Notes: generated by a model from the sequence alone, not told the origin. DNA of 32,000 nucleotides from Pirellula staleyi DSM 6068 (GCA_000025185.1 CP001848.1:4470001-4502000); one strand, 5' to 3'. Counted from the first letter of the stretch, positions 9,590-29,000 are shown. Numbers and translations: made by a program.

Positions 9590-9591
9590 CG

Positions 9592-10269: not shown

Positions 10270-10483
10270 TATCTGCCTACCTGAATGCTGCTTAACAATA
10301 TTCCAGTAGCAGCTTGGGTAGATTTAGGCGGTTCGCTTCACAAAATACAACCACTTTAATATCCACCTTAGATTATGATTTAATTTCTATGGGGCTAGCC
10401 AGCTGTGGTTATCTGCAGACATACTGTTGCCGCAACTGGGAATAATAATGTGATGCGCAACCTTTTAGCTGAGCTGGTATCCG

Positions 10484-11494: not shown

Positions 11495-11543
11495 TTACCT
11501 TACGCGCGTGAGCTTGAAGTTGTGCACATCGCGCACCAAGCCT

Positions 11544-12731: not shown

Positions 12732-12877
12732 AATTATTTACTCTCAAACTTTGCTGTAGTAGCAACTGATCTTAATTTCGCATCTTTTAAGTAGCAGCGC
12801 AAGCAATCTAAAAACGGAAGCTTAACGAATCAGCTGCAGTCGATTATTGAATTCTTGGCAAGTTTGCAAGAATCTGG

Positions 12878-12907
12878 TTGACAAATCATCACTCGAGTTG
12901 CCATACT
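12878..12907 (+). promoter_or_regulatory. Candidate sigma-70-type promoter for the giant gene (TTGACA-N18-CATACT)
   Basis: TTGACA at 12878-12883, an 18-nt spacer, then CATACT at 12902-12907, in the 459-bp AT-rich divergent intergenic region. It would give a leader of roughly 275 nt. The giant gene's RBS, AAGGA, lies about 8 nt before the ATG at 13191. This is a pattern match only. Confidence 0.3.
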
Positions 12908-13190
12908 CCCCGCCGGATTAAAAATAGCTCGTTAGGTGGGTTATTTCAATCCATAGGAGTGCTTCTTACTCTACCTGTCTTTTCTGTTTTCCTGCTTCCT
13001 GGCAGTCGGCTCGCGATGCGCGCCGAGCGATCCACCGCCGGCCTAGCTCACGATTGCCACTAACGATCGTCTGCTAGGCCACTTGATTAGATTTCGACCG
13101 ATCGCCTTAGCATTTTTTCAAAGCCTTTTGACCAGACGCGTCAACGGGTCCGCTGATGCTGCGCCTGTACACGACTAAAGGATTTACATC

Positions 13191-16100
13191 ATGACAATCT
13201 CGCGCAAAGAGTTGGCTCGTCAAAAGAAGCGTCAAAAAGAATTGCGAGCTGCCATATTGGCTCGGCGCGAGCGCCGGTCGCTCATCGAGCAGCTCGAGCC
13301 GCGTCAAATGATGGCGGCTGAAGTCAGCAACTTTAGGCTTTGGTATGACTCAGGTTATTCGTCGACCGACAAGGTCTCGAGCGATACTCGCCTGGCTGGT
13401 GCCCTCGCTTTTGGTAGCGGAAATTCGGGGCGCATCGACTTTGATCATAACGGCGATAGCAATGTCGATGGGACTATTTCGGTCGTTAACTCAGGTGGCA
13501 GCTTTAAGTATGAGCCGCGCGACAATGGTCTCAGCGAGTCGTTTACCGGTGCGCTCGATCTGAAGTATCGCGCGGTGGAACTCGACAGCTACGGCGGTGT
13601 GCTCAATACCGGCAGCTGGACCAGTTTTCCGATCACCGTCGAATCGCGCCTCGGCGCCGATCTGCAGAACCTGCATCTCGTGAGCGATACTGGGAGCTCT
13701 TCGACCGACAAAGTGACGAGCGATTTGCGACTCGCAGGCGCTGTAACGTGGGATGGCTACGGTGGTTTTGCGCAGGTGGAGTTCGATCTGCATAACGACG
13801 GCACAGCCGATGGCTATGCCGGGCTCTGGTGGTCGGGCGAAAGTTTTGAAGTGAACCTGCGGAACATGGGGCTCTCGTCGTCCTATAGCGGCGCGCTTCC
13901 GCTGAAGTATCGCATCGTGGAATTCGATAGCTACAGCAGTCCACTCTATACCTCGGACTGGCAAAGCTTTGCGATCACCGTGGAGACTCCGCGGCTGTAT
14001 GGCAACGTCAATTCGCTGCAGCTGGTGAGCGATACCGGAAGTTCCTCGACCGATAAGGTGACCAGTGATCCGCGCGTGAGCGGCTCGATTTCTTGGGATG
14101 GCTACGGCGGCTCCGTGCAGATCGAGTTCGACCACAACAACGACGGCACTTACGACGGCTATGCCGGAACGTACTACAGCGGCGGCAGCTTCACCTACGA
14201 CCCGCGTAACTGGGGATTGTCGTCGATTTATAGCGGCGAATTGCCGCTGCGCTATCGCATTGTCGAGCGCGATGACTACTACAACACGCTCTTCACCGGA
14301 TCGTGGCAGGATTTCACGATCACCTTGGAGCCGCAGCGCATCAACGCAGTGATGAGCGGCCTCGCGCTGGTGAGCGATACCGGCACCAGCAGCACCGACA
14401 AGCTCACGACCGATCCGCGCCTCACCGGCAACGTCAGCTGGGATGGCTACGGCGGCTACGTCGACGTCCAGTTCGATCACAACAACGACAACTACTTCGA
14501 TGGCTATGCGGGCGTCTGGTCGTCGGGAAGTTCGTTCAACTACGATCCGCGCAGCTGGGGACTTTCGAGCGAGCACGCGGGCGTGGTGCCGATGCGCTAT
14601 CGGTTCGTCGAATACAACGAGAACTACACGGCGATCTACACCAGCAGCTGGACCAGTTTCGAGTACACGATGCTAGCGCCGCGGCTCAACGCCACGCTCA
14701 GCGGTCTGGCGCTCGTGAGTGATACCGGCACCAGCAGCACCGACAAAATTACCAGCGATCCGCGCGTGTCGGGAAGTGTGACTTGGGATGGCTATGGTGG
14801 CTGGGTCGATGTGCAGTTCGATCACAATTCCGACGGCTCTTACGATGGCTACGCGGGTATTTGGTCGTCGGGAGGCTCATTCACCTACGATCCACGCAAC
14901 TTTGGACTTTCGAGCAACTACTCGGGCGAATTGCCGCTGAAATATCGAACCGTCGAGTACTCTAGCGGCGGCTCTACTTTGTTCACTAGCAACTGGGCCA
15001 ACTTCCCCATTACCATCGAACAGCCGCGGCTGAATGCGACGCTCACCGGGCCGCAACTAGTGGTAGATGATGGAGCCTCTTCCTCCGATCGTGTGACCAC
15101 CGACCCGCGCGTGTCGGGAAGCGTCACTTGGGATGGCTACGGCGGCTCGGTGCAACTGCAGTTCGACCACGATGCCAACGGCTCGCTCGATGGCTATGCC
15201 GGAATTTACAGCTCGGGGAATTCGTTTACCTACGATCCGCGCAGCTTTGGGCTTTCGTCGAGCTACTCGGGAAGCTTGCCGCTGAAGTATCGCGTCGTCG
15301 AAATGGACTCCTACGGCGGAACGCTCCACACCAGCAACTGGCAAGATTTTGCGATCACGATTTCGGGAGCCGAGCCATCGGCCACCCTCGCGAACTTGCA
15401 TCTGGTGAGCGACACCGGCACCAGCAGTACCGACAAAATCACCAGCGATCCTCGTCTCGCTGGTAACGTGAACTGGGACGGCTACGGTGGCTATGTGACG
15501 GTCGAGTTCGACCACACTGGCAACGGTTCCGTCGATGGATCAACGACGCTCTACATGAGTGGCGATGCTTTTCAGTACGATCCTCGCAGTAGCGACCCAA
15601 GCCTTTCAACCTACGCAGGCACGCTCCCGCTGAAGTATCGCTTGGTCGAAAACACCTCTGGCGGAAGCACCATTGTCGGTTCGTGGCAAACGTTTACCTA
15701 CACTCTTGTGGGTCAGTCACCCGCTCCCGAAATCACCGTCGTCGATTCGAGCATCGCGCCGATAGCCGACGAAATCGGCTCCTATTCCTTTGGGACGACT
15801 GTCGCCGGTTCCTCGATCGTGCGAACCTTCACGATCGTGAATCAGGGGACCGGCACACTCACGCTCGATGCCAATAGCCTTTCATTGCCGAGCGGCTTTG
15901 CGCTCGTTTCGACGTTCGACAGCACCGTCGATCCCGATGGCGGGACCACGACGTTCAGCGTCCGGCTCGAGGCGACTACGCCCGGGGTTTACAGCGGCAC
16001 ACTCTCGTTTACCAGCAACGATGCCGATGAGAGCCCTTACAACTTCACCATCACAGGACACGTTCTGTCGGCTGAAGCTGAAATCGATGTCGAGCGCGCA

Positions 16101-19100
16101 GATGGCTCGAATCTTGCCGATGGAACTGGGACGCTCAGCTTTGGTGCGACAGCCACCGGTACTGCTGTTTCGCGCACCATCACGATTCGCAACATTGGCT
16201 ACAGCACCCTGGTGCTCGACGACGAGTCACTCTCGCTGCCGAGTGGCTATTCGCTCGTCAGTGGATTTGCCACCTCGGTTTCTCCAGGTGAATCGACCTA
16301 CCTCACCGTTCAGCTCGATGCGTCGTCCGCAGGCACCTATGGCGGACAGCTTTCGTTCACCACCAACGACACGAGCGAAGGGATCTTCAACTTCCAGCTC
16401 ACTGGCACCGTCGAAGCCCCCACTCCCGAAATCGTGGTTCGGCTGGCGAGTGAATCCAATCGCTCGCTCTACAGCGGATCGGATAGTGTCGACTTCTCCT
16501 GGGCGCAGGTCGGTGGCGCCAATGCACGCACCTTGCTGATCGAAAACACCGGGACCGGCACTCTCACGCTCGATAGCGCGTCGCTTGTTCTTCCGGTTGG
16601 ATTTCGCGTCGCCACCCCGTTTGCCGCCACGGTAGCCCCCGGCGCAAGCACTTCGCTGATTGTGGAATTTGCCCCCGGATCGGAAGGTTTTCATTCCGGA
16701 GAACTTTCGTTTGTGACAAACGATTCCGACGAAGGACTCTTTCGGTTCACACTCCACGGCGAAGGGTATGGGAGCGGTACACCGAGCGGCACGCAGCTGA
16801 TCGTTGGGCTTCGCAACGACACCGGGATTTCATCGAGCGACAAAGTCACTTCCGACTACCGGATTCAGGGAGAAGTGACGGGACTAGCTGCTGGCGAATC
16901 GGCTCGCATTGCGATCGATCTCGGGACCGATGGGATCGCGGAAACGGAAATCACCGTCACGGCCGCCAGCCCCGAGTTTGCCTTCGATCCTACGACCATC
17001 GCCAGTTCGTTTGCAGCGACACTCGGCGCTAAACTGCTCCGCTTCAAAGTGACCTATTTCGACGACCAGGACAACGAGATCGGCACCGGAAATTGGCAAA
17101 CGTTCAGCTATGCCTTGGAAGCGATTCCGGTCCAGATCACCCCGACGCTCCTCACCGATACTGGCCCGATTTACAACGACTCGATCACCTACCTTCCGAC
17201 CCTCTCCATTGCCGTGCAGAAGCATAGTGGCAGTGGCAACATCCGCTTGGAGTTTGATCACGACGCTGATGGCGATGTCGATGGCTCGGCAGCTGTTCCC
17301 TATTCCTACACGGTGCTGCAGTATGATCCGCGCGTGAGCGATTCGTCCTTTGCAGCATTGCGGGGTGAAATCCCGCTCCGCTATCGCGCGGTGATGATCG
17401 ATGGCAATGGTGAGCCGATCGCTCTGGGGGCCTGGAACAACTTCACCATCGAGCAGACAGGGGACACCCGTGCCGAGGGTTTGCTGCTATCGGAACTGGG
17501 GCTCAGTTTGGACTCCGGTGTTTCAAGCACCGATCGCATTACCTCGTCACCCGTGATTTATTTTGTCGCGAGTGGTGAGTTGGAAACGGGGAGCGGCGCG
17601 GTCGACTTCGATTTTGAAGGGAACGGTTCGGTCGACACGACGCAGCTGGTCGATCAACTCGACCAAGAATACTTATTCGACCCACGTACGCTTGGTGGAT
17701 CGGAGTATGAGACCAACGGCGCGAAAGAAATCTTTTTCCGCGTGCGTAAGCTCAATGAACTCGGTCTTACGGAGGCCACAGGGGACTGGCAGCCGTTTCG
17801 CTTCACCTTCGAGTCAGCTCCTACCTCGACAGCTTCGCTCCAAAACGTGGCGCTGCTGCACGACACCGGCGCAAGCAGCACCGATCGTGTGACGAGCGAT
17901 GGGACGATCAAGGGAATTGTGCAAAGTGGCGAGGCCTACTCAAATTTTGCGTTTGTCGAAGTCGACTGGACCGGTAATGGGACGGTGGATGATGTCATCC
18001 CAGCGGTTCATGGTCTCGCAGGATGGGAGTTCCGCGCCACTCCACGCTCACTGAGCTACGGCACCTACGATACGCTGCTGCGAGTGCGTGAATGGAGCGA
18101 TCAGTTTGGCCAGTATCGCTATTCCGCCTGGAGCGAGTTCAGTTTTGAGTTCGTCGCGATGAGTTCGCCTGCCATCGCGAGCCTGAAACTCGAAGGGATC
18201 GATGCCAGCATCAGCAGTTATGTGACTGCCCATGAAACAACGCTGCTGGGAGAAGTCGCAACACCGGTTGACCGCTCCTACATCATCTACCTCGATGCCA
18301 ACGGCGATGAGATCGCCGAAGCAACGGCCTACAGCGATGGGCAAGGGAAGTTCTCCATCGAAACACCCATCGCCGCGGCTGGAAATGTCTCCGTGCGGCT
18401 GCGCACCGCTGTTTACGATCCGATCCTGCAATCCGAGATCCTCGGACCTTGGCGATCGTTTGCCTTCAGTTACGAATCGAAAGCGCTCGCCAATGTTACC
18501 GAGCTTTCGCTGCAAACGGATACCGGCACCTCGGCGACCGATGGCATTACCAAAGACCCGACCGTGAAAGGAAAAGTGACTCCGCCGACCACAGCCACCG
18601 GCATCTCGGTGAGTGGCGTGCTGGTCGAGTTTGATGAAGATGGGGATGGCGATGCGGAGGGATTCACCAGCACCTCGACCACCGGAGAGTTCAGCTATCG
18701 TCCACTCACACTCTTGCCTGGCACCGTGACAATCCGCGCTCGATCGCGCGCATTCGACGAAAATCTACGCACCAATATCTACGGCACATGGAAAGAGTTC
18801 ACGTTCACGCTCGAGGCCACAACTTTTGAGACCGGTACGGTAAGTCTATCGCTTGCGAAACCGAGCGCGACGAACTCTGCCCAAACCACCGATCCGGCGA
18901 TCAAAGGAACGACGGTGATTGGCAGTGGTCGGCACGCGGTAGTCGAATTCGATCACAACGGCGATGGAACCCCCGAAGGTTCGGTCGCTACCGACACAAC
19001 GCATCAGTTCACCTATGTTCCTATCGGAATGGGGGTAGGGAGCCACACGATTCGTGCTCGGGTGCGCGAATGGAATCCGGTTGCGCGACAGCTTGTGATC

Positions 19101-22100
19101 GGCGACTGGATCGAAATGAACTACACCGTTGTCACCACAACGAATCAAACACCCACAGTCACCAGCCTCGCGCTGGCCAGTGATTCGGGGAGTTCTGCCA
19201 GCGATCTCATCACCGGCAATTCGCTACTCACCGGCACGATCAACAACCCCGATGGTGCGGAAGCAGGATTGCCGGTCGAGATCGATGTGAATAGCGACGG
19301 CCTAGGGGACACGATTGTGTTTGCCGATAGCCTGGGACAGTTCAGCTATCAAGTTGAAGCGATCCCCTACGGCGCGAATACCGTTCAGGCCCGCGCGATC
19401 GAATGGGACGAGCCTTCGGGTCAATATCTGATTAGCAGTTGGCAAAGCTTATCGTTCACCTATGTCGCCCCCAGTGGCGAAGCCGCCTATGTAAGCGAGC
19501 TCACCACCGTTACACCTCCCTACTATGGCCAAGTGCTCGATCCGATTCTTACCGGGCAAGTGATCAACGATGGATCGCTGAAAGACATTGTCGTCGAACT
19601 CGATTTCAACGGCGATAACACCATCGATGTCCGGACACTCACCGATAGTAATGGGCACTTTGAATATCGCCCGGTCGGACTTGCGCCAGGCAACTATGCA
19701 ATTCGGGCCCGGGCTCGCGAACTCGATACCATCACGGGCCAACTCACCACAAGCGGATGGACCACTCTCTGGTTCGAGCTTCTCGCTTCGAACAACCAGG
19801 TCGCCACACTTTCGCCACTAGCGCTTGTGGAAGATACCGGAACCGTAGGGGATGGCAAATCGGCGAATCCCTCGCTGAAGGGGACGGTCACGAACGATGG
19901 CTTGTATAGTGGCCTCGTCGTGCAAATCGATCACAACGGCGACGACATTGCCGATGGTGTTGCGGGAGTCGATAGCACAGGGAACTTCACCTACACTCCG
20001 CACGGTTTGGCCTATGGCACCTACACATTCCGAGCGCGGGTGAAGGAGCTGAATCAGCTCGGCACGCCGATGTATAGCAGCTGGCAAACCCTTGCGCTCG
20101 ACTACCAACCCGAGGCATATCAAGGGGTCAAGATCACCACACTCAATCTGGCGAGTGACACCGGTAATTCAGCCACCGATGGAGCGACGTCCAACCCATC
20201 GCTGACTGGCTCGATTAGTGGAACGACCAGTCCGATCGTGATCCGCTTTGATCACAACGGAGACGAAGTTACCGACGGCACCGCGACGACCGATGCCCAA
20301 GGGAACTTCAGCTACTCGCCAAGTGGGCTCACCGAAGGACTGGTTACGATCCGCGCTGCTGTCGAAGGAACGACAATCGCCAGTGGGCTGCGCTGGACCA
20401 CCAAGACCTTTGTCTACTCCACAACTCCCGATGGCGAAACAGCGCAAGGACTGGTCCATACCCACCTGACTTACACCGCCGCTTGGCAGCGAGCAGGAGA
20501 CGACTATAACGCCGCGATCAGCGCCGCCAACTCACTCTACACGTCGATCCGCGACCGGGCCGCTCTGACCTACGATGCCTCGGTCGCCAGTTCCACCCTC
20601 GCACGCGACGCCGCGCTCGCGCAGGCTCAAGAGGCATACAGCCTCGCCACTGCTGCCGCCGAAAGCACCTATGCCTCGCAGATGGCCGATATCCAAGGCC
20701 AATTCATGCTCGACCTAGCGGCCTATGGCGGGGACACAACGACGTTTCAGCTGCGCGAGTTTGCCTGGCCCACGTCGCCAAGCTCGATGGGACTCGAAAT
20801 TCCGAGCGATGCGTCGCAGCCCACAGCGCCGCAAATGATCAGCGAGACGAGCACCTACTACGACTGGTCGAGCGACACTGCTTATCAAGGGGCCATCGCC
20901 GCTGCGAACAACAGCTACCAGACCGAAAAACTCGAAGCCGAGAACATCTACTCGGCAGCGAAAAAGAGTGTCGACGACACCTATAACTCAGCCGTTAGTG
21001 GAGCCAATCGAACTCACTCGGAAGAGGTCGCAGCGGCCAAGAAAGCTTACGACGACGCGCTGCTGGTGCCGATCACGAATGCGGTCGACATGGTCGCCGC
21101 GACGAGTGACTACAGCAGCGCCATCGCCAATGCCACCGCGCAGCGCGATCGCGTGTTGGCCCGCATCGATACGGGCGATATCTACCAGCAGCGCAGCGCT
21201 CTCGAGAACTGGCGCGATGCCCAGATGTACGCTTGCTCGACCTGGGAGTACGAAGCTCGTATCGCGCGCGAGCGCGACATCTGGGAGGAATATCACCACC
21301 GCTATGCCGACATCGAAAAAATCGTTGCCGACCGGATGGCCAAAGCCGATTACGACTACGGCGTCGCTGTCGAGAATGCCGCCGTCGCCTTCAAGCACAA
21401 AGAAATCGACCGTGATCAGCAAGTCGAGCAGCGAAAAATCAACGCGGCTGCGGTTCGCGATAAAGCAATCAATGCCGCCGATGCCAAACGCGATAAAGCG
21501 ATTGCCACCGCGCAGTTTGAAAAGACCAAGGCACTCGCTGTGGCAGCGAAAGCCTTTGATTCAGCTGTCGAGAAAGCGCGGCTCGATTCGGTGAAAGAAC
21601 AATCCGATGCGCGCACCTCTCCGCTTGCGAGTTGGGCCGATGGGCTCGGGACACGCTGGACCACTTACTACAAAGAGATCGTTGGGCACGATGTCGATCA
21701 TGTGAGCAGCATCGTCCCCAAAGCGGAGGAGCGTTACGAAAGCGATCTTGCCACTGCCAAGACCGAGATCGAGAAGATCGCCGAAGAAAAGAAGAAACTC
21801 GCCCACGAAAAGAGTGATCTGACGCTGACGAAAAAGAATGCCGAAGTCGATTCCGACAAGGTGTTTAGTACTGCTGAGAATGTCGCAGAAATCACGCGTA
21901 AAAAGGCGAACGAAACTGCCTTTAGCGAGTTCAAAAAGAAAGATTTGGAGATCACGCGAGATTTCAAAATCGAGGATGCGACGAACCATCAGAGCTACAC
22001 GAAGGCGGCTGCCACACTCGACCGCAGTGTCGATCGGGATGCCCCGGTTTACGTCTGGAGTTCGAGCCACCAGTCGAACATTCTGAATCAAGCGCGCATC

Positions 22101-25100
22101 AACGACTACTACGAGTATTTCGTAGGCACGGGCTCGGCGGGATCGGAATCGGGCGGAGTCTACGCACTCCTCTACAGTCGGGCTCAATCGCTCGAAGCCA
22201 ACGATCTGACACGTGCCACCGCGCGAAACAATGCCTGGCACACATATCAAACAGCCGTTTATGGCCACGCGCGAACTCGCGCCGAGGCAACAGCAACGGC
22301 AGCCGAAGTGCGCGACAAGTCAAAAGCCGATGCTGCTTTCACCTTCACGACGACCTACGCAGAAAAGTACTCGGCTTATCTGAAGTCGACGTCGGAAGCC
22401 TCGAAAACAGCTGCTGACGAGGAGACCGCAAGTGACACTACGTACAACGCCCATCTGAATGAGGCTGAGGTCCAGCGTAATGATAGCGAGGCGGAAACCA
22501 CCAACGACTATCGGACCGGACTAGCTGAAGATCACAAGGATCAGGTCGGATCGTGGGGGACAGCACTCGACTCGGCCTGGGGAACGCTACAAAAAACGCT
22601 CGCCGATACCAACTTCGATCAGATCGTTGGACTAGGCGCAGCACTGGTCACCAACACCAGCACACTGGGTGGATTTGCGCTCACTCACGCCGATGAAATC
22701 GGCTCGAGCCTGCAGCAGCTTGTCGAGGGGATTGTCGCTGCCGACGACACCGAAACGCAGGCCCATTCCGATGCGATTGTCGCCTATGCCACGAAGGTTG
22801 CGACCGAGCGAAAGGCCTATGCGTACAAGCTTGCAGCGGCCAATAAAGAGCACGATTTTGCGGTGGCAGAAAAAGATGAGGCCTATCGTGTCGGAGTCTC
22901 CGAACGTCAGCGGGTGTACGAAAATGCGGTCGCTGCTCTCAAGTTCGATGCCGAAGATTCTCACCAAACCACGCCGAATGTCATTTACGTAGGCTCGGCG
23001 TCGTCGATCGATTTCCGCCTAGCAGCGCTCCATATGATCTTCTCGGCCGACGATAGCCCCATCACCGGCTATGGTATTCGGATCGGGCAAGCTGACGTCG
23101 ACTATCTCCGCGCGCTGGCAGCACTACAGAAGACTGAACTCGCTAGCCAAACGAGCAACTACACTCTCTCGGAAAACTATCACACACAAAAAACAGCCAT
23201 CGGCGATACCTGGCAAGCCGCCATGCGCTCGCAGCATGAAGGTTACGAAAAAGCCAAATTCGCCGCAGAACGAACACGCGCCGAAGGGGATGTCAACGAT
23301 CATCAAACGTGGGTCCTCGGGATTCAGAACGACCATGTCACGCTCGCCGAAGAAGCCCAATCGGCAGCCAACACTTTGGCCGATGCGCTCGCCGAAGCGA
23401 CCACCAGTCTCGCCACCGATCAGGCCGATGCGGCCCGCGCCTTCTCCGAAGAGGTTGCCGCTGCTGACAAGTCGTACACCGACGACACAACCAGTGCCGA
23501 TGTCGAGTACTCCAACGATGCTCTCGGCGCCGACAACAGCTACTCGCTCGGCTCCATCACTTCGAGCAATGCCTACGAAGAGGCGATCGTAGGGGCTCGC
23601 GGCAACTACGAAGAAACCCTGCACCAGCAGCACCTCGCGAAGCTGCAATCAGCGACAGTTCCAGCGGGGGCGATCACCAAGCTGAACATGTATCGCATCG
23701 GAGTCGCTGAGGCGAACCTCCAGTGGTCGCAAGATCTGTGGGCCGCCCGCGAGCAGCAGCAAGCGAGTGCCTCGATGCGCAACCTCGCCTCGATCCAAGG
23801 AGGAACATCATTCCTGGGCGGCAGCGGCGGTCATTCCATCACCGGTTCCTCGTCTGCGAGCGTGACTCAAACATCGAGCATTGGCGAAGCCTACCTCGCG
23901 CACACGACCGGCACGAGCAGCGCAGTCAAGTCGCTCAGTGACGATACAGCGGATGCCATTCGCGATGTGGTGGTCGGTGTTCGCACCGCCGAGTCGAGCG
24001 ATGCTGCACGGCAAGTGAAGGCCGAGAAAACCTACGACGTCGATCATGCCATCGCCGCGCGCACGTTCCATGAATCGACCGAAGCCGCTCTCCTCGCGTG
24101 GGCCAGTGATGTACTCGATGCACGTGGTGCTTACTGGGACGAGTTTCAGAGCGAAATGTACTACGACCTTCCGGCCGAGGAAGAGGCTTGGGAGGATGCC
24201 TATGGCGGGAATCTATCGCGCGCCGAAGTCCGCGATGCCGCCATTGAAGTGGCTGACGACCAGTACGATCTCGCGATCAAAACGGCGCGTAAGGATTTCG
24301 CGCTAGAAGTCGGCGACGCCCAGATCGATCGGGCACACACCGTCACACAGTCCGCCGCGACACGGGAAGACGAAGCCGGCCAGGCGGTGATCAATGGTCA
24401 GTCGAGCCTCAATTCGGCCGAAACCAGCTACATCGGCACCACCAACGGGCTCAACAATGCGAGCGCCTCAGGCTACGGCCTGGCCGACAAGATCTACGAC
24501 GAGGCCACCGCCAAGATCAACGAGTTTCTCACCGAACTCAACGGCAACTCTAGCATCGCCTATGCCACCGTCCTTGCGAATGCTCGTACCAGCCGGGCGG
24601 TTGCATTAGCGACTGCTGAGGCCGATTACCACATCGCGATGGCCACCACAACCGCCACTCGCGAGAACGCTCTCTATCAATCGATGGCCACCGCCAATCC
24701 GGCCGATCCACTCCTCACCTATCACCAATTCCTCGCCTCCCAATCCACCGCTTATGTCAGCTGGCTCTCTGGCATGAAGCCCGCCTACGCCTCCTACATC
24801 GAATCGATGAGCGAGGCGGTCAGCGCCGAATCGATTGCCTTTGCGGAAGCTCAAGCGGCAGTCGATCGCGCTCGTGCCCAGTCGCAGCGCGAACGTGCAT
24901 TTTCAGCTGCCGAGCGCTGGATGAATAGTGAAATCGCCGAGACTTCCGCTTATGGCGATTACCGCACCGCCGAAGCGACTTCGCGTCATGCTCGCGATCT
25001 CGCGCTCCCAGGCTACGAACGCACCTTGCAGATGGCATACCAGGCGCAAGACGAGTCGCAGCTGGTGGCCCACACCACCGCCGAGCGCGACTACTGGTTC

Positions 25101-28100
25101 ACCATCGTCGGGGACGACGACTACAACTACTACACGTATTCCGCTGCTGCCAACTCGGCCCTCACCGCAGCTCGTGCCGCCGCCAACACCGGCTGGGCCG
25201 AGGACTACTCCACCGCCGACCTCGCCTGGACCACCAGTGTCACCACGGCCGACACCACCTATCGCGTCGCCCTGGAGAATCACAACTACGGCTACGAACT
25301 CGGCGTCGAACAGCGCGGCGAAGTTCGGACCGTTGCCGAGGCCCAGTCCGACCACGCGAAAGCGATCGCCGACAGTGCCGCTGAACGAACATTCGATCTC
25401 GCACTCACCGCAGCCTCCAATGCCCGGCGCACTGCCGAGTTCACCGCCGCTGCTGATTTCCAAGGAGCCGACTACCAGGCTCAGGCCACCGCCATCGCCA
25501 GCATCAGCACCGCAATGAACCTCCCTTGGCTCACGTTTGAAGCGGATCTCGCAGGGGTGAAACTGAGCTGGTGGACCAGCACCGGCCGCACCGAGTGGCT
25601 CGACGCTGGCATCGATCTGAACGAAGCCGACACCACCTACGCCATCGCTGCCGCCGATGTCAACGCTGCGCATCGCGTCACCGTCGCCGGTGCCGATCGC
25701 GACCTGGCGATCTCCGAAGCCGCGCGTCAGCGCATTCGCCGCACGGGAGAACTGGCAGCCGACCGTGATTTTGCAATCACCTTCGCGGGAGTCGACCAGG
25801 CCTATCAACTGGAACTGGCCCAAACGCGTAACTACTACCGGAATGCTCAAGCAGCACTGACCGAAGACTACGCCGACGAAGCGGCTGCATCGCAGTACTT
25901 CTTCCTCAGCAGCACCCCTGAGTTCGCGGCAATCGAGTCCCAAAAATCAGCCCGATCCACCGCTGCCAACGATCGCTGGCTCGTCGGCATCACCGCCGGT
26001 GAAGGGGCCCAAATGCAAGCCCACGCCGCCGCCCTCCTCAGCTACGCCACCTCCTGGCGCAACGACAACCTCGCTTACGAAAACACATTCCTCACGAGCA
26101 TCCGCGATCGTGACCTTGCTCTTACTACGCACTCCAATATCCAAAAACTTTCCTACGCTGAACTATACCGCGACTACCAAATCGATTCTGCGACTACCTT
26201 CGCCATTACCATCGACTCCTTTGTCTCCACAAACACCACACCTTGGTCCATTCGAGTCGCTGAGGCAGGAGATGCACAATCGGATCGGACAGAAGGTGTT
26301 GCAAACGCGATATTCGAGTTTAAAGAAATTGAATTCTTAGAAGCACATGATCTCGCAATATCCAAGATTCTTTCGGCGTTCGAGCACAATCGTGATTCCC
26401 GACTCTCTGGGATCGAAGAGTCGATGGTAGAGGACATTGCTCGAGCCCTCCGCGACAATAACCTTGGTCAGGTGCTCACAAATTGGTCTACCAATGACAG
26501 TTCTAACCTGCGCACCTTCGATTCTACTACTGAAACTACTCCTAGCGCTGAAGGCCCCGCACCCTCGCGAACTACCCGTCCGGGAACAGGAACAAATTCG
26601 AAGAAGCCGAACGAAACAACGCCCGCAAAAGCAGAGCCTCTGTCGAGTAACAATGTCGCATCTGATGGTTCCGATTACAGATACTCGCCTGCAACCAGTC
26701 AAGAATCAATTAAAGACGATGTTTCTGATGAATACACTCCCCATCCGCCATTACCCCGTTTAGTTCTCGATCCTCGAATTGGCGAGTATGTCCTAGCTGA
26801 CCAGGTTAGTAGCTCTTCTGACTACTATGATGTCCCCTCGCAATCTCGCATTAACGCATCAAATCGATACAATCCATCGCCTGATTACATAGAGGTTCAG
26901 AGTCAGCTGTCGGCTCGCTATTACGCCGATGACAACAAGAAACAAGGATATGTCGGGTTCGTCTTCGACACACGACCTGAATTGAAAGAAATGGGAGTGC
27001 TAAATGTTTCTATCGAATCATTTGAACGATTAAACTATCTCTTTGCAGGCGATAGCAACACTAGCATAACGTCAATTGAACTAGCCATTGCTGCTATGGG
27101 ATTGGCTGGCTCTGAATGGAAGCGGTCGACTGAGAACTTTAAAATTGGAGAAAACGTCTATGAAATAATTGTTCTCGAAAATGAAGCAACGGAGGACACA
27201 TGGTATGCTGTTCCCGAGGTTGTGTACACATTTAAGGATGGATATGTTCCCGAGAGCCGTGGGTTGAGTGATCCATTTACGGCGGCTAAGCCCTACCTAG
27301 TTTTTTTGGCAATCCCATATCCCGGACTGGCTAAACAGGTTTACTTATGGTCCCCCAAAGAAGCAGAGCCGCTTGGGCCAAAGCTAGTGGGAGTTACATT
27401 TTATTCTTCGCGAAGTAACGTAGAATACGCCCTCTCAGGCACAAAACGTATTGAGTTGTTGAACAAACTTGCAATAAGCTATGGAGTCGGTGTAGGTGCC
27501 TTGAATATTCAGTCTGTATTCAAGTCAGCGACTGCATCCGTCAAGTCGGTCTCTAGTGTGTCATCGATCGCATCAGAGACGACAGGAGCTCTTGACAATC
27601 TCGCTCAGACAGTCACTGTTGCCGACAATGCGACACCTTCCTCCGCTGATATCTTCGCTGAAATCGCAAAATCAGGCGACAATGCCTCCCAGTCCACCGT
27701 CGACACGTTCACCGATTTAGCCAAGAGTCTTGACGAGGCACCACCTCTAGATCAATCTAATGCTCCAAACAGAACTCCTTGGGACACAATTGACCACTTC
27801 CGGTCGCACAAGCAAGGAATGGCTGAACTAGGGGATGCTATTCCTGTTAAGGGGGACAAGCTAGGAACTGTTGCCTTTGTCGAGATAGAAGGCAGCAAGG
27901 TATTTGGGGTAAATTCAACAGCGTTAGTAGACGATGCAGACAAAGCCTTGGGACGTATGTGGCGAGATCGCCTTGGCTTCAACTCCGGACAAGCTCAAGC
28001 ATTGTTTCATGGGGAGGCCCATTCGCTCATGCGTGCCTATGAGAAGTTTAGTGGTAAGCTCCCTAAAGATCTGACCCTCTATGTCGATCGACTGACGTGT

Positions 28101-28223
28101 GGGCCATGTCAGGGGGCATTACCCGATCTCATGAAGGCAATGGGGATTGAGCGTCTTAAGATTGTGACAAAGAGTGGCAGGGTTGGTGAAATCTCTGGAG
28201 GAGTGTTCAGATGGTTGGAGTAG
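13191..28223 (+). CDS. Giant (5,010 aa) modular surface/secreted polymorphic-toxin-like protein with C-terminal nucleic-acid deaminase-like domain
   Basis: A single uninterrupted ORF of 15,033 nt with an AAGGA RBS. The domain order is given in the sub-features below. The codon and GC pattern matches host genes until about 26,250. Every other long ORF in this interval is an antisense or alternate-frame artefact. Confidence 0.95.
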   Translation: MTISRKELARQKKRQKELRAAILARRERRSLIEQLEPRQMMAAEVSNFRLWYDSGYSSTDKVSSDTRLAGALAFGSGNSGRIDFDHNGDSNVDGTISVVNSGGSFKYEPRDNGLSESFTGALDLKYRAVELDSYGGVLNTGSWTSFPITVESRLGADLQNLHLVSDTGSSSTDKVTSDLRLAGAVTWDGYGGFAQVEFDLHNDGTADGYAGLWWSGESFEVNLRNMGLSSSYSGALPLKYRIVEFDSYSSPLYTSDWQSFAITVETPRLYGNVNSLQLVSDTGSSSTDKVTSDPRVSGSISWDGYGGSVQIEFDHNNDGTYDGYAGTYYSGGSFTYDPRNWGLSSIYSGELPLRYRIVERDDYYNTLFTGSWQDFTITLEPQRINAVMSGLALVSDTGTSSTDKLTTDPRLTGNVSWDGYGGYVDVQFDHNNDNYFDGYAGVWSSGSSFNYDPRSWGLSSEHAGVVPMRYRFVEYNENYTAIYTSSWTSFEYTMLAPRLNATLSGLALVSDTGTSSTDKITSDPRVSGSVTWDGYGGWVDVQFDHNSDGSYDGYAGIWSSGGSFTYDPRNFGLSSNYSGELPLKYRTVEYSSGGSTLFTSNWANFPITIEQPRLNATLTGPQLVVDDGASSSDRVTTDPRVSGSVTWDGYGGSVQLQFDHDANGSLDGYAGIYSSGNSFTYDPRSFGLSSSYSGSLPLKYRVVEMDSYGGTLHTSNWQDFAITISGAEPSATLANLHLVSDTGTSSTDKITSDPRLAGNVNWDGYGGYVTVEFDHTGNGSVDGSTTLYMSGDAFQYDPRSSDPSLSTYAGTLPLKYRLVENTSGGSTIVGSWQTFTYTLVGQSPAPEITVVDSSIAPIADEIGSYSFGTTVAGSSIVRTFTIVNQGTGTLTLDANSLSLPSGFALVSTFDSTVDPDGGTTTFSVRLEATTPGVYSGTLSFTSNDADESPYNFTITGHVLSAEAEIDVERADGSNLADGTGTLSFGATATGTAVSRTITIRNIGYSTLVLDDESLSLPSGYSLVSGFATSVSPGESTYLTVQLDASSAGTYGGQLSFTTNDTSEGIFNFQLTGTVEAPTPEIVVRLASESNRSLYSGSDSVDFSWAQVGGANARTLLIENTGTGTLTLDSASLVLPVGFRVATPFAATVAPGASTSLIVEFAPGSEGFHSGELSFVTNDSDEGLFRFTLHGEGYGSGTPSGTQLIVGLRNDTGISSSDKVTSDYRIQGEVTGLAAGESARIAIDLGTDGIAETEITVTAASPEFAFDPTTIASSFAATLGAKLLRFKVTYFDDQDNEIGTGNWQTFSYALEAIPVQITPTLLTDTGPIYNDSITYLPTLSIAVQKHSGSGNIRLEFDHDADGDVDGSAAVPYSYTVLQYDPRVSDSSFAALRGEIPLRYRAVMIDGNGEPIALGAWNNFTIEQTGDTRAEGLLLSELGLSLDSGVSSTDRITSSPVIYFVASGELETGSGAVDFDFEGNGSVDTTQLVDQLDQEYLFDPRTLGGSEYETNGAKEIFFRVRKLNELGLTEATGDWQPFRFTFESAPTSTASLQNVALLHDTGASSTDRVTSDGTIKGIVQSGEAYSNFAFVEVDWTGNGTVDDVIPAVHGLAGWEFRATPRSLSYGTYDTLLRVREWSDQFGQYRYSAWSEFSFEFVAMSSPAIASLKLEGIDASISSYVTAHETTLLGEVATPVDRSYIIYLDANGDEIAEATAYSDGQGKFSIETPIAAAGNVSVRLRTAVYDPILQSEILGPWRSFAFSYESKALANVTELSLQTDTGTSATDGITKDPTVKGKVTPPTTATGISVSGVLVEFDEDGDGDAEGFTSTSTTGEFSYRPLTLLPGTVTIRARSRAFDENLRTNIYGTWKEFTFTLEATTFETGTVSLSLAKPSATNSAQTTDPAIKGTTVIGSGRHAVVEFDHNGDGTPEGSVATDTTHQFTYVPIGMGVGSHTIRARVREWNPVARQLVIGDWIEMNYTVVTTTNQTPTVTSLALASDSGSSASDLITGNSLLTGTINNPDGAEAGLPVEIDVNSDGLGDTIVFADSLGQFSYQVEAIPYGANTVQARAIEWDEPSGQYLISSWQSLSFTYVAPSGEAAYVSELTTVTPPYYGQVLDPILTGQVINDGSLKDIVVELDFNGDNTIDVRTLTDSNGHFEYRPVGLAPGNYAIRARARELDTITGQLTTSGWTTLWFELLASNNQVATLSPLALVEDTGTVGDGKSANPSLKGTVTNDGLYSGLVVQIDHNGDDIADGVAGVDSTGNFTYTPHGLAYGTYTFRARVKELNQLGTPMYSSWQTLALDYQPEAYQGVKITTLNLASDTGNSATDGATSNPSLTGSISGTTSPIVIRFDHNGDEVTDGTATTDAQGNFSYSPSGLTEGLVTIRAAVEGTTIASGLRWTTKTFVYSTTPDGETAQGLVHTHLTYTAAWQRAGDDYNAAISAANSLYTSIRDRAALTYDASVASSTLARDAALAQAQEAYSLATAAAESTYASQMADIQGQFMLDLAAYGGDTTTFQLREFAWPTSPSSMGLEIPSDASQPTAPQMISETSTYYDWSSDTAYQGAIAAANNSYQTEKLEAENIYSAAKKSVDDTYNSAVSGANRTHSEEVAAAKKAYDDALLVPITNAVDMVAATSDYSSAIANATAQRDRVLARIDTGDIYQQRSALENWRDAQMYACSTWEYEARIARERDIWEEYHHRYADIEKIVADRMAKADYDYGVAVENAAVAFKHKEIDRDQQVEQRKINAAAVRDKAINAADAKRDKAIATAQFEKTKALAVAAKAFDSAVEKARLDSVKEQSDARTSPLASWADGLGTRWTTYYKEIVGHDVDHVSSIVPKAEERYESDLATAKTEIEKIAEEKKKLAHEKSDLTLTKKNAEVDSDKVFSTAENVAEITRKKANETAFSEFKKKDLEITRDFKIEDATNHQSYTKAAATLDRSVDRDAPVYVWSSSHQSNILNQARINDYYEYFVGTGSAGSESGGVYALLYSRAQSLEANDLTRATARNNAWHTYQTAVYGHARTRAEATATAAEVRDKSKADAAFTFTTTYAEKYSAYLKSTSEASKTAADEETASDTTYNAHLNEAEVQRNDSEAETTNDYRTGLAEDHKDQVGSWGTALDSAWGTLQKTLADTNFDQIVGLGAALVTNTSTLGGFALTHADEIGSSLQQLVEGIVAADDTETQAHSDAIVAYATKVATERKAYAYKLAAANKEHDFAVAEKDEAYRVGVSERQRVYENAVAALKFDAEDSHQTTPNVIYVGSASSIDFRLAALHMIFSADDSPITGYGIRIGQADVDYLRALAALQKTELASQTSNYTLSENYHTQKTAIGDTWQAAMRSQHEGYEKAKFAAERTRAEGDVNDHQTWVLGIQNDHVTLAEEAQSAANTLADALAEATTSLATDQADAARAFSEEVAAADKSYTDDTTSADVEYSNDALGADNSYSLGSITSSNAYEEAIVGARGNYEETLHQQHLAKLQSATVPAGAITKLNMYRIGVAEANLQWSQDLWAAREQQQASASMRNLASIQGGTSFLGGSGGHSITGSSSASVTQTSSIGEAYLAHTTGTSSAVKSLSDDTADAIRDVVVGVRTAESSDAARQVKAEKTYDVDHAIAARTFHESTEAALLAWASDVLDARGAYWDEFQSEMYYDLPAEEEAWEDAYGGNLSRAEVRDAAIEVADDQYDLAIKTARKDFALEVGDAQIDRAHTVTQSAATREDEAGQAVINGQSSLNSAETSYIGTTNGLNNASASGYGLADKIYDEATAKINEFLTELNGNSSIAYATVLANARTSRAVALATAEADYHIAMATTTATRENALYQSMATANPADPLLTYHQFLASQSTAYVSWLSGMKPAYASYIESMSEAVSAESIAFAEAQAAVDRARAQSQRERAFSAAERWMNSEIAETSAYGDYRTAEATSRHARDLALPGYERTLQMAYQAQDESQLVAHTTAERDYWFTIVGDDDYNYYTYSAAANSALTAARAAANTGWAEDYSTADLAWTTSVTTADTTYRVALENHNYGYELGVEQRGEVRTVAEAQSDHAKAIADSAAERTFDLALTAASNARRTAEFTAAADFQGADYQAQATAIASISTAMNLPWLTFEADLAGVKLSWWTSTGRTEWLDAGIDLNEADTTYAIAAADVNAAHRVTVAGADRDLAISEAARQRIRRTGELAADRDFAITFAGVDQAYQLELAQTRNYYRNAQAALTEDYADEAAASQYFFLSSTPEFAAIESQKSARSTAANDRWLVGITAGEGAQMQAHAAALLSYATSWRNDNLAYENTFLTSIRDRDLALTTHSNIQKLSYAELYRDYQIDSATTFAITIDSFVSTNTTPWSIRVAEAGDAQSDRTEGVANAIFEFKEIEFLEAHDLAISKILSAFEHNRDSRLSGIEESMVEDIARALRDNNLGQVLTNWSTNDSSNLRTFDSTTETTPSAEGPAPSRTTRPGTGTNSKKPNETTPAKAEPLSSNNVASDGSDYRYSPATSQESIKDDVSDEYTPHPPLPRLVLDPRIGEYVLADQVSSSSDYYDVPSQSRINASNRYNPSPDYIEVQSQLSARYYADDNKKQGYVGFVFDTRPELKEMGVLNVSIESFERLNYLFAGDSNTSITSIELAIAAMGLAGSEWKRSTENFKIGENVYEIIVLENEATEDTWYAVPEVVYTFKDGYVPESRGLSDPFTAAKPYLVFLAIPYPGLAKQVYLWSPKEAEPLGPKLVGVTFYSSRSNVEYALSGTKRIELLNKLAISYGVGVGALNIQSVFKSATASVKSVSSVSSIASETTGALDNLAQTVTVADNATPSSADIFAEIAKSGDNASQSTVDTFTDLAKSLDEAPPLDQSNAPNRTPWDTIDHFRSHKQGMAELGDAIPVKGDKLGTVAFVEIEGSKVFGVNSTALVDDADKALGRMWRDRLGFNSGQAQALFHGEAHSLMRAYEKFSGKLPKDLTLYVDRLTCGPCQGALPDLMKAMGIERLKIVTKSGRVGEISGGVFRWLE
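13320..15740 (+). repeat. Seven tandem Ig-like (adhesin-type 'DTGxSxxDxxTxD') repeats; units 2-7 are exactly 345 bp / 115 aa apart
   Basis: Unit starts are at 13320, 13671, 14016, 14361, 14706, 15051 and 15396. Consensus: L.LVSDTG(S/T)SSTDK(I/V)TSDPR(V/L)(S/A)G.V.WDGYGG.V.V(E/Q)FDHN.DG..DGYAG...SG.SF.YDPR..GLSS.YSG.LPLKYR.VE. Stretches such as ctggtgagcgataccggcaccagcagcaccgacaa recur at the DNA level. Confidence 0.9.
15726..16773 (+). repeat. Three tandem ~116-aa choice-of-anchor-D / ASH-like beta-sandwich modules
   Basis: Each unit reads PEI.V....(FG)....G....RT..I.N.G.G.L.LD..SLSLPSGF.LVS.F...V.PG.......V.L.....G.Y.G.LSF.(T/S)ND..E..(Y/F)NF...G. An example is SFGTTVAGSSIVRTFTIVNQGTGTLTLDANSLSLPSGFALVS...LSFTSNDADESPYNFTITG. 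Confidence 0.7.
16790..20412 (+). repeat. About 11 divergent Ig-like modules of the same adhesin type
   Basis: Module-start motifs recur: LRNDTGISSSDKVTSD, LLTDTGPIYNDSITY, LSLDSGVSSTDRITSS, LLHDTGASSTDRVTSD, LQTDTGTSATDGITKD, LASDSGSSASDLITGN, LVEDTGTVGDGKSANPSLKG and LASDTGNSATDGATSNPSLTG. Each is followed by (E/I)(F/I)D.(N/D)GDG..(D/E) and ...R(A/V)R. The module count is approximate. Confidence 0.7.
20440..26450 (+). repeat. About 2,000-aa Ala/Thr/Asp/Glu-rich, Cys-poor region, presumably alpha-helical, with an 11-residue (33-nt) aromatic periodicity
   Basis: Hand-checked registers have an aromatic residue at i, i+11, i+22, i+44 and i+55. In DDYNAAISAANSLYTSIRDRAALTYDAS...QEAYSLATAAAESTY the Tyr residues fall at 0, 11, 22, 44 and 55. 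In NSYQTEKLEAENIYSAAKKSVDDTYNS...KKAY they fall at 0, 11, 22 and 44. In KSYTDDTTSADVEYSNDALGADNSYSLGSITSSNAYEEAIVGARGNY they fall at 0, 11, 22, 33 and 44. GWAEDYSTADLAWTTSVTTADTTYRVALENHNYGY gives W0, W11, Y22 and Y33. KVFSTAE...AFSEFKKKDLEITRDFKIEDATNHQSY gives F0, F22, F33 and Y44. The boundaries are approximate. Confidence 0.75.
27800..28220 (+). other. C-terminal deaminase-like toxin domain (HxE...CxxC; DddA/SCP1.201-like by motif and element order)
   Basis: Sequence: KLGTVAFVEIEGSKVFGVNS...AQALFHGEAHSLMRAYEKFSGKLPKDLTLYVDRLTCGPCQGALPDLMKAMGIERLKIVTKSGRVGEISGGVFRWLE. H4940-G-E4942 lies at nt 28008-28016 and C4970-G-P-C4973 at nt 28098-28109, with 27 residues between the Glu and the first Cys. 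The inferred order strand-strand-(HxE helix)-strand-(CxxC helix)-strand-strand fits the cytidine-deaminase fold. Confidence 0.7.
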
Positions 28224-28675
28224 ATCAAGTGAATCGCTTTCATAGCACATTCAGATCCTTCGGAAACCAAGGGGTCGATCCAATCGAGTGGGAACGACAC
28301 TTCTTAAATTACCACGTTTCCGAATGGTTGTCCGAAGGCGATGGAGTCCTCCAGTTCTTTTCCCATGATGGCAAGCGGTACTCGCTGGTTCTTGTTCACG
28401 TGCCGAGTCGTGGGTTTGTTCTTCAATACGATTGCCGAGATTTGTCCTTGCAGAAGACTGTCTCTTGCAAGTACGCAGTGTCAGATCAATCGCAGTTGTC
28501 ATGTTTTGAAGAGGTGGCAGACGGCCTTATTTATCCGACTGGTTGTATTTTGCCCCCTTCAACAGCTTGGGTTGCCGTGAAGGGATTCCTAATCCATCCG
28601 ACTCTACCCTCAAATGATGTTGAGTGGATCGCAGATCAAGACATTCCTTGGCCAGAGTCGCAACGAGAATCATGA
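28211..28675 (+). CDS. Putative cognate immunity protein for the C-terminal deaminase toxin (family unassigned)
   Basis: 154-aa ORF whose ATG at 28211 overlaps the giant gene's last codons and TAG (28221-28223) by 13 nt, which suggests translational coupling. An alternative GTG start is at 28229. The protein is small, appears cytoplasmic, and has no signal peptide or TM helix. Trp residues lie near the C-terminus (DVEWIADQDIPWPES). It shares the reduced GC of the toxin end. The function is inferred from position only. Confidence 0.65.
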   Translation: MVGVDQVNRFHSTFRSFGNQGVDPIEWERHFLNYHVSEWLSEGDGVLQFFSHDGKRYSLVLVHVPSRGFVLQYDCRDLSLQKTVSCKYAVSDQSQLSCFEEVADGLIYPTGCILPPSTAWVAVKGFLIHPTLPSNDVEWIADQDIPWPESQRES

Positions 28676-28914
28676 AATCGTTCGCCCGTGCGTGAGTGTG
28701 ATTCACCGTCACGATGAAAAAGAAACAGGAGCATTGCCATCACGGGACAGGGGGTGACCACCTTGCCTGCCAGGGGAATCGCCTGGAATTGTTTGATTCT
28801 TATCTTTGTGGCAGCGGTTGCTTGGCGATGGCAAGGTAGTTTATCTGCCCGGCAGAGAATGGCGGCGATGGCTTGAACAAGTGATCCATCGCTTGACCCT
28901 ATTGGTTCTGAATT

Positions 28915-28933
28915 GGCGTCGCCAGACGCTTTT
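28915..28933 (+). terminator. Weak hairpin plus T-tract (GCGTC-GCCA-GACGC-TTTT)
   Basis: A 5-bp GC-rich stem with a 4-nt loop followed by TTTT, about 240 nt downstream of the immunity ORF and between convergent genes. The stem is short, so support is low. Confidence 0.2.
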
Positions 28934-29000
28934 GCCGTGGTCTTAGAAGGTTAGATCCTATGCATGTTGTTTCGTCATCTGGGGAGGTGGAGGTTGGTGG

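Follow-up and report, generated by a model that had tools for sequence, protein, structure and literature searches.

Deaminase toxins of the MafB19 clade form the C-terminus of MafB of Neisseria, of RHS proteins and of CdiA, and an immunity gene lies downstream of them. The clade, its role as a toxin, its presence in planctomycetes and the immunity (Imm) families were all described in 2011-2012 (PMC3239186; PMC3482391). DddA of Burkholderia cenocepacia belongs to a different clade, SCP1.201 (BaDTF1). It is delivered by a type VI secretion system (T6SS), acts on double-stranded DNA (dsDNA) with 5'-TC specificity and is paired with the acidic immunity protein DddI (PDB 6U08), which blocks it by DNA mimicry (PMC10442228). 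SsdA (BaDTF2) of Pseudomonas syringae has an immunity protein that is all-helical (PMC7901873). In the CdiA-CT/CdiI and Rhs-CT/RhsI systems a conserved carrier exchanges its tip together with the immunity gene as a unit of low G+C content, and orphan cassettes follow downstream in some strains. Here we describe a locus of Pirellula staleyi DSM 6068 that resembles each of these systems in part. It consists of the 3' end of the giant gene Psta_3456 and the overlapping gene Psta_3457, and lies in a stretch of 32,000 nt (GCA_000025185.1 CP001848.1:4470001-4502000), hereafter the window, which the original prediction, made from the sequence alone, had rightly taken for planctomycete DNA. With a probability of roughly 0.8 we consider the two genes to be a polymorphic toxin-immunity pair, the toxin being a MafB19-type deaminase domain at the tip of the giant protein.

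Psta_3456 (ADB18118.1 / WP_012912380.1 / UniProt D2QYF9, an exact match) encodes 5,010 aa, and the last 144 of these match the Pfam family PF14437 (MafB19-like deaminase) over profile positions 1-142 of 142 with 102 bits (gathering cutoff 27) and an E-value of 3.5e-29. The sole other Pfam family found on the tip at E<=1 was the generic dCMP_cyt_deam_1 (E 0.26). The motifs FHGEAHSL (aa 4939-4946) and TCGPC (aa 4969-4973), whose residues E4942 and C4970 are separated by 27 others, lie exactly where the original prediction had placed them, and its proposal that the giant protein ends in a zinc-dependent domain of deaminase fold is supported by both the Pfam match and the predicted fold. All four of the residues H, E, C and C are invariant in the alignment of the toxin subfamily. 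By analogy with the deaminase superfamily (PMC3239186) H4940 and the two cysteines C4970 and C4973 would be zinc ligands and E4942 the proton shuttle. Five signatures have been listed for the MafB19 clade (PMC3239186 Table 1): strand 2 closes with N, helix 2 carries HxE, strand 3 closes with V, helix 3 carries basic-xx-CxxC, and strand 4 opens with G. All of them are present in the tip as KVFGVN, HGE, LTLYV, R-LT-CGPC and M-G-IERLKIVT when placed by the strands and helices of an AlphaFold2 (AF2) model; in the toxin alignment N58, V115 and R117 are invariant, while the G before strand 4 is not. The tip is thus a MafB19-clade deaminase domain and not a member of the DddA/SCP1.201 class. It should be kept in mind that this family name covers more than one thing: Pfam PF14437 and the original 'MafB19' profile of Iyer et al. 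reportedly differ, the 'MafB19' proteins of InterPro fall into two structural clades, and the profile also catches phage dCMP-deaminase-like proteins (10.1101/2023.06.29.547047; 10.1101/2023.05.21.541555). A housekeeping enzyme of the TadA/dCMP-deaminase kind was considered and dropped, since the domain is C-terminal, has spread as a module and is linked to an immunity gene (see below).

The AF2 model of the last 160 aa (mean predicted local distance difference test score, pLDDT, 83; predicted template modelling score 0.82) shows the three-layer alpha/beta/alpha arrangement with a five-strand sheet that is typical of the cytidine-deaminase-like superfamily. The catalytic motifs are on helices H91-102 and H121-134. 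Strands E138-143, E148-152 and E155-159 follow helix 3 with no intervening helix, which places the domain in the C-terminal-hairpin division, as is the case for MafB19 toxins; like these, the tip has HxE rather than CxE. The order of strands and helices that had been read from the sequence was reproduced by the model, which has in addition one further strand and an insert of two helices that follows strand 2 and precedes the HxE helix. The domain ends shortly after the catalytic cysteines throughout the family (median 34 aa past CxxC). In a Foldseek comparison of the model with the PDB all plausible matches were deaminases, in the order PPR-DYW (9kfx, E 3.6e-5), SsdA (8.7e-4 to 3e-3), plant cytidine deaminase and DddB/BaDTF3. 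SsdA and the plant DYW domains, the best structural matches (E 3.6e-5 to 3e-3), resemble the tip in having HxE, in the antiparallel course of strands 4 and 5 and in an insert that separates strand 2 from the catalytic helix. However, their template modelling (TM) scores reach only 0.47-0.53 and their identity 9-16%, and the tip has no SGW, PG-box or DYW motif. No TM-score exceeded 0.53, and we therefore regard the tip as representing a clade without a close solved structure. The NCBIfam scan of the tip and the immunity open reading frame (ORF) gave no matches, and the search of PDB sequences with the family profile gave spurious metal-binding matches only.

The original prediction had assigned the tip to the 'DddA/SCP1.201-like' deaminases. 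In this case Psta_3456 would carry an enzyme with the dsDNA specificity of DddA, combined with a novel immunity protein. The similarities on which this was based are real. TCGFC and the spacing of 25 residues between Glu and Cys, given for DddA in that prediction, agree with the sequence of 6u08_A (the tip has 27 residues), T-C-G-x-C is common to both proteins, both belong to the C-terminal-hairpin division and both have an adjacent acidic immunity protein, which in P. staleyi is weakly DddI-like. Nevertheless, PF14428 (SCP1.201-like, the DddA family) did not match the tip at E<=1, DddA was absent among the phmmer and hmmsearch PDB matches of the tip and its family, and hhalign of the toxin-subfamily profile with DddA gave a probability of 5.4% over 15 columns around CxxC. 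By Foldseek DddA ranked only 26th (E 0.1, TM 0.34). The SCP1.201 clade is marked by [HD]xEx[KQ] in helix 2 and by a strand 3 that closes with N (PMC3239186 Table 1); both signatures are missing in the tip, which has HGEAH and LYVDR where DddA has HVEGQ and LVFHNN. The T before the first Cys is native to the tip's own family, being found in 89 of 120 representatives. At the level of family membership the assignment to DddA is already refuted, and we give this explanation as a whole very little credence. It follows that the dsDNA 5'-TC specificity of DddA is not transferable to the tip of Psta_3456.

A search of 1.84 billion cluster representatives with the toxin profile yielded 420 relatives at E<=1e-3. 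The domain was always the C-terminal end of the protein, which could be as long as 4,079 aa, and HxE...CxxC with a spacing of 26-27 residues was kept in 120 of the 132 family representatives. The same tip is found on mutually unrelated carriers: proteins with Calx-beta repeats, proteins with SpvB, FG-GAP and RHS, proteins of the CdiA type with Fil_haemagg and PT-VENN, and proteins with DUF6531 and RHS. The module is spread over six phyla. When Psta_3456 was compared with 30 carriers by BLASTP, similarity began at aa 4809-4892, mostly at 4830-4892 and never earlier. For this reason we put the module boundary at aa ~4850 (nt ~27,738); the boundary of the original prediction, nt 27800, was in the right region but slightly too far downstream. 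A further arrangement was seen in Roseobacter sp. CCS2 (AAYB01000005.1, locus L005, 1-10744), where an ShlB gene and a 2,110-aa two-partner secretion (TPS) protein of the CdiA-like type are followed by an array of cassettes. The array consists of an ORF of 151 aa, a MafB19-type deaminase module of 232 aa that stands alone and has an immunity homologue of 146 aa, and then a pair of ORFs of 256 aa and 252 aa.

The ATG of Psta_3457 is situated 10 nt before the TAG stop codon of the toxin (28221-28223), so that the two reading frames overlap by 13 nt, and a GGAGGAG sequence resembling a Shine-Dalgarno site precedes the ATG by 7 nt within the toxin coding sequence. This is the arrangement of a translationally coupled downstream gene in the immunity position, and both the overlap and the 154-codon ORF had been described correctly in the original prediction. 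An identical 13-nt overlap is retained in two metagenomic relatives (L003, L004). Scanning for promoters and terminators near the immunity gene gave nothing beyond the expectation from shuffled sequence. Eight genome loci from six phyla were retrieved with the toxin profile (Fuerstiella, Gimesia, Methylophaga, Chryseobacterium, Roseobacter, Geopsychrobacter, Ruminiclostridium and Aquimarina). In all eight the toxin is followed by an ORF of 137-163 aa, the start of which lies from 49 nt upstream to 22 nt downstream of the toxin stop. A hidden Markov model (HMM) built from Psta_3457 homologues detects seven of these ORFs at E<=3.5e-12 and the eighth marginally; a wider profile recovered the eighth as well.

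Members of the Psta_3457 family also occur without a toxin. Two metagenomic contigs (L001, 339-919, and L002; ENA ERZ3430525 / ERZ3430528) carry an orphan immunity gene with 82% identity to Psta_3457. The gene is preceded by just the last ~42 toxin codons, beginning just after CxxC, and this remnant is joined to an ORF of transposase-like character, as though the toxin had been disrupted and its immunity gene retained. Distant family members in Bacteroidetes (L015, Chitinophaga arvensicola; L016, a Sphingobacterium metagenome-assembled genome; L017, an ENA contig) stand alone with no toxin or remnant nearby and may be orphan or acquired immunity genes. The immunity gene of the window is itself uneven in its relationships: compared with the DNA of L001 and L003 its 3' half is ~97% identical, whereas its 5' half and the 3' end of the toxin are ~80% identical, and it may be a recombination mosaic. 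Strict co-occurrence with the toxin, replacement together with the tip (see below) and the existence of orphan copies constitute the pattern of an immunity gene family. From its position and co-occurrence Psta_3457 is predicted to be the cognate immunity protein of the tip.

The exchange of tip and immunity gene can be seen directly in a close relative. A protein of 4,809 aa from a sister Pirellula strain (SRR845265 assembly) falls into the 90%-identity cluster of Psta_3456, and its syntenic locus (L014) could be compared with the window at the DNA level. Identity is 98.1% over positions 9194-26183 of the window, breaks off, and resumes at 28687 (96% over 28687-29252), 12 nt past the immunity stop codon. 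Between these points 2,503 bp of the window are replaced by 4,870 bp in L014 (16994-21863), and the two sequences are not related. At the protein level the alleles drop from ~100% identity to 47% over aa ~4290-4480, with none beyond. The breakpoints 26183/26184 and 28686/28687 coincide with a break in composition (26090-28800). In the giant ORF the G+C content of third codon positions (GC3) lies at 0.66-0.85 as far as aa ~4250 and at 0.40-0.50 from aa ~4300 to the stop codon, the immunity ORF has a GC3 of 0.48, and G+C content recovers past nt ~28,900. Tip and downstream ORF have thus been replaced together between close strains. The exchangeable unit is much larger than the deaminase, since it includes the end of the stalk, a Pro/Thr/Ser-rich linker, a region of ~350 aa, the toxin and the immunity gene.

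A conserved carrier, a tip swapped together with its immunity gene, orphan cassettes and low G+C content are features that the P. staleyi locus shares with the CdiA-CT/CdiI and Rhs-CT/RhsI systems. In contrast to these, it has no demarcation motif (VENN or PxxxxDPxGL). Instead, the switch point lies in a stretch of ~150 aa at the end of the stalk, the part that is 47% identical between the alleles, and the swapped unit includes ~500 aa of no assigned function upstream of the toxin. The pre-toxin part of this (aa 4300-4850) had no Pfam match, no PDB sequence match and no relatives in the metagenome scan, and its ~350-aa region at 26691-27737 is shared with no other carrier of this toxin. Translocation, processing and binding of a receptor are candidate roles for this region. 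The insert of the sister strain is composite. It encodes a different tip with an overlapping 207-aa ORF, a minus-strand DDE transposase of an insertion sequence element, and a PT-HINT/ParB_N module of 300 aa that is an orphan and is accompanied by an ORF of 128 aa. The sister tip had no Pfam match; its sequence 'YDIVV...GIEIKSS' was read by eye as PD-(D/E)xK-like, that is as a nuclease, with no support from Pfam.

The protein that the Psta_3457 family matches best in the PDB, though weakly, is DddI. SUFU and SUKH proteins are the published partners of MafB19-clade toxins (PMC3239186), and Imm1 has been tied to SCP1.201 toxins (PMC3482391); DddI itself is an Imm1 member (33 bits). Matches of the Psta_3457 family to Imm1 (PF14430) are recurrent and always collinear with the C-terminal half of the profile, and they stay below its threshold of 22.4 bits; the best member reaches 19.7 bits and none passes. 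One distant member is labelled 'Immunity protein Imm1' by UniRef. When a wider family alignment was run against all PDB sequences with hmmsearch, DddI (6u08_B) was the top match (E 0.018), and hhalign of this alignment with a DddI sequence 100% identical to 6u08_B gave a probability of 76% (E 2e-5) over nearly the full length. With a smaller family alignment the value was 39%, and the control with reversed DddI gave 0.6%. The hallmarks of Imm1 are an alpha+beta fold and, close to the C-terminus, an aromatic residue as well as a Trp (PMC3482391). These are also found in the Psta_3457 family, as far as the model can be trusted: the AF2 model of Psta_3457 (pLDDT 83.5) has helices and a central sheet, and F126 and W139 are invariant in the family alignment and align with the FF...W of DddI. 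We therefore think it likely, though unproven, that the Psta_3457 family is distantly related to Imm1/DddI, the link being a weak one. The original prediction had spoken of an unrelated-looking immunity partner, and here the situation is reversed, as Psta_3457 is the one component of the locus with a weak but detectable link to the DddA system. The partner of the tip thus differs from the published SUFU and SUKH partners and, in its alpha+beta fold, from the all-helical immunity protein of SsdA. A MafB19-type toxin with an Imm1-like partner is a small addition to the published pairings, and it suggests that proteins of the Imm1/DddI type can neutralise two deaminase clades. Furthermore, the Psta_3457 family is uniformly acidic (pI 4.1-5.3, compared with 4.2 for DddI) and the toxin domains are mostly basic, a combination that fits the DNA-mimic mode described for DddI.

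As to the way in which the system might work, we propose the following. Psta_3456 would be a cell-surface carrier made up of an export-type motif, ~2,400 aa of Ig-like repeats, an Ala-rich stalk of ~2,000 aa, the linker, the 350-aa region and the tip. The tip would be delivered into a competitor cell and there deaminate cytosine in DNA, single-stranded (ss) and/or double-stranded, by zinc-dependent hydrolysis involving H4940, C4970 and C4973 together with E4942. Deamination of DNA would lead to uracil-driven damage and C-to-T mutation. The producing cell would be protected by Psta_3457, which would be made by translational coupling and would bind the toxin stoichiometrically, probably over the active-site cleft as DddI does on DddA. 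Tip and immunity gene would travel as a 2.5-kb cassette that is swapped by recombination at the end of the stalk. What the analysis shows is the identity of the domain with its catalytic motifs, the spread of the tip as a module, the conserved order of toxin and immunity gene, and the exchange between alleles; that the tip is toxic, acts on DNA, is displayed and delivered, and is neutralised in the way proposed is inferred from these.

With regard to the substrate we somewhat favour cytosine in DNA, because the toxin deaminase clades that have been assayed mutate DNA and because both MafB19-sense enzymes and PF14437 members are active on it. For the bacterial toxin deaminases, mutation of DNA has been found in each clade assayed to date (PMC7901873), MafB19-family enzymes as the Iyer profile defines them act on ssDNA and dsDNA with a preference for CpG (10.1101/2023.06.29.547047), and members of PF14437 deaminate C in ssDNA in base-editor assays (10.1101/2023.05.21.541555). 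With the same architecture and immunity logic the substrate might instead be RNA, such as cytidine or adenosine in tRNA, rRNA or mRNA, or free nucleotides. That the top Foldseek match, 9kfx, is a PPR-DYW RNA editor and that TadA tRNA deaminases are also listed would agree with this, as would the yeast cytosine (free base) deaminases, which are the nearest PDB sequences to the tip (E ~0.004), the phage dCMP-deaminase-like proteins caught by PF14437, and the observation that several toxin-family deaminases exceed APOBEC3A in RNA activity (10.1101/2023.06.29.547047). On the other hand, the TM-scores to the RNA enzymes are low (0.34-0.53), the tested clades (DddA, SsdA, BaDTF3 and MafB19 in the Iyer sense) mutate DNA (PMC7901873), and a basic toxin with an acidic partner resembling DddI, itself a DNA mimic (PMC10442228), would be more in keeping with DNA. 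We consider RNA or nucleotides an improbable substrate and return to DNA cytosine as the preferred one. It is possible, though we would not expect it, that the locus is more unusual than this. The tip would then represent an uncharacterised PF14437-type branch with a substrate rule of its own, accompanied by a DddI-like DNA-mimic partner recruited across clades, a giant carrier specific to planctomycetes and a new recombination junction.

The carrier itself is unlike those known for the clade (Table 1). It has an Ig-repeat and Ala-rich structure in place of MafB_N, RHS, haemagglutinin or HINT domains. Tandem direct repeats with a period of 345 nt occur at 13431-15651 within the Ig-like region. 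The middle ~2,000 aa consist of 19% Ala and are poor in Gly and Pro, and no Pfam family matched this part in the scan of the whole protein. Judged by its composition and helix propensity, it is presumed to be an extended helical stalk. The N-terminus of the protein is strongly basic. The markers of delivery by contact-dependent inhibition, Rhs and T6SS systems (TPS and haemagglutinin repeats with VENN; RHS with PAAR/VgrG) are missing from Psta_3456 and its neighbouring genes, so that, other than for T6SS-delivered DddA, no secretion-system marker was detected. The neighbours are unrelated to secretion and encode an extracytoplasmic function (ECF) sigma factor, a Ser/Thr kinase, CotH, VTC, methyltransferases and a glycosyltransferase. 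In the absence of a delivery module in the carrier and of secretion genes around it, both export and entry into a target cell are suppositions. Upstream of Psta_3456, at 3373-10269, the ECF-type sigma factor with a long N-terminal extension and the Ser/Thr protein kinase are followed in a row by CotH kinase, VTC and DUF4956 genes. Nothing was seen that would connect this set with the toxin; its VTC and DUF4956 genes have syntenic counterparts in the sister strain. Farther upstream a PSCyt1/PSCyt2/PSD1 planctomycete protein is encoded on the minus strand (13-3114).

Table 1. Features of the Psta_3456/Psta_3457 locus, with positions counted from the first nucleotide of the window.
Feature	Position	Strand	Basis or remark
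Giant ORF Psta_3456, carrier protein of the predicted toxin	13191..28223	+	ORF and translation
'Planctomycete extracellular'-like N-terminal motif, aa 28-45, RSLIEQLEPRQMMAAEV / LIEQLEPRQMMAA	13272..13325	+	Pfam PF07595, E 0.0027, 17.8 bits
Ig-like repeat region, aa ~47-2430	13329..20480	+	Pfam Big_13, HYDIN_VesB_CFA65-like_Ig, ASH, Cep192_D4
Ala-rich middle region, ending at the sister-allele breakpoint	20481..26183	+	Composition, helix propensity
Strain-variable low-GC cassette: last ~680 codons of the giant gene and immunity gene	26184..28686	+	GC3; sister comparison
Pre-toxin region, aa ~4501-4849, after Pro/Thr/Ser-rich linker (aa ~4441-4500)	26691..27737	+	No Pfam match
Toxin module, aa ~4850-5010	27738..28220	+	PF14437; similarity boundary across carriers; AF2 deaminase fold
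MafB19-like deaminase domain by Pfam, aa 4867-5010	27789-28220	+	PF14437
H4940-G-E4942	28008..28016	+	Putative zinc ligand His and catalytic Glu
C4970-G-P-C4973	28098..28109	+	Putative cysteine zinc ligands (two)
GGAGGAG, Shine-Dalgarno-like sequence	28197..28203	+	Within toxin coding sequence, 7 nt 5' of Psta_3457 ATG
Psta_3457, 154 aa, pI 4.9, predicted cognate immunity protein	28211..28675	+	100% match to Psta_3457

Several observations weigh against the reading of Psta_3456/Psta_3457 as a toxin-immunity pair with the mode of action outlined above. None of TPS, RHS, PAAR, VENN, HINT and LXG/WXG was found in the Pfam scan of the whole of Psta_3456. The N-terminal motif scores below the PF07595 cutoff (17.8 versus 25.5 bits), and inspection of the N-terminal sequence (13191-13330) shows no hydrophobic core of a signal peptide. 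Psta_3457 itself reaches only 12.9 bits with Imm1, below the threshold, and Foldseek gave no significant PDB match for the immunity model (best E 0.39). Finally, the closest structures to the tip include RNA-editing DYW domains, and none of the enzymes in the NEB screen had Pfam PF14437 as its best match, so that activity is transferred to the tip indirectly (10.1101/2023.06.29.547047).

It might be argued from the lack of any recognised secretion or translocation domain in Psta_3456 that the tip is not a delivered toxin at all but an idle or self-acting appendage of an adhesin, and that the downstream ORF is an unrelated small gene. The public names of the protein, 'hypothetical', 'ASH domain-containing' and 'choice-of-anchor D domain-containing' protein, treat it as an Ig-repeat surface protein, and a deaminase is absent from all of them. 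However, an idle appendage would hardly have kept H, E, C and C invariant. The two presumed zinc cysteines are two of only three cysteines in the 5,010 residues of Psta_3456, the third being C2682, which is the only Cys of the sister allele. Moreover, the same tip is found on RHS and CdiA toxins, the downstream ORF co-varies with it in six phyla, tip and ORF have been exchanged together in the sister strain, and orphan copies of the immunity gene exist elsewhere. We regard the appendage as the least credible of the explanations considered here and adhere to the toxin-immunity pair.

How much of this is new needs to be stated with care. The domain is detectable by routine Pfam annotation, and the novelty claimed in the original prediction was overstated, as MafB19-clade deaminase toxins were catalogued in 2011 in a phyletic range that already lists Planctomycetes (PMC3239186). 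The legend of the alignment in Figure 3 of Iyer et al. (PMC3239186) even names P. staleyi, although identity with Psta_3456 could not be confirmed; the locus tag Psta_3456 was not mentioned anywhere in the results of our literature search. In other words, Psta_3456/Psta_3457 is an ordinary though well-preserved bacterial polymorphic toxin. What is new is the cassette delimited by comparison of alleles, the conserved pairing with an Imm1/DddI-like partner across six phyla, and a carrier without a known delivery module.

The practical value of the finding is modest, because routine Pfam annotation finds the domain and because the clade, including planctomycete members, was described in 2011. Correction of the family from DddA-like to MafB19 does matter to the search for new base editors, as double-strand specificity cannot be assumed. 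If the tip does belong to an uncharacterised branch of its own, this PF14437-type branch (~420 clusters) might provide an activity that prefers CpG or acts on double strands and could serve in base editing or methylation sequencing. For the biology of the Planctomycetes, a phylum in which interbacterial antagonism has barely been studied, the locus provides a clean and fully delimited example of a polymorphic toxin.

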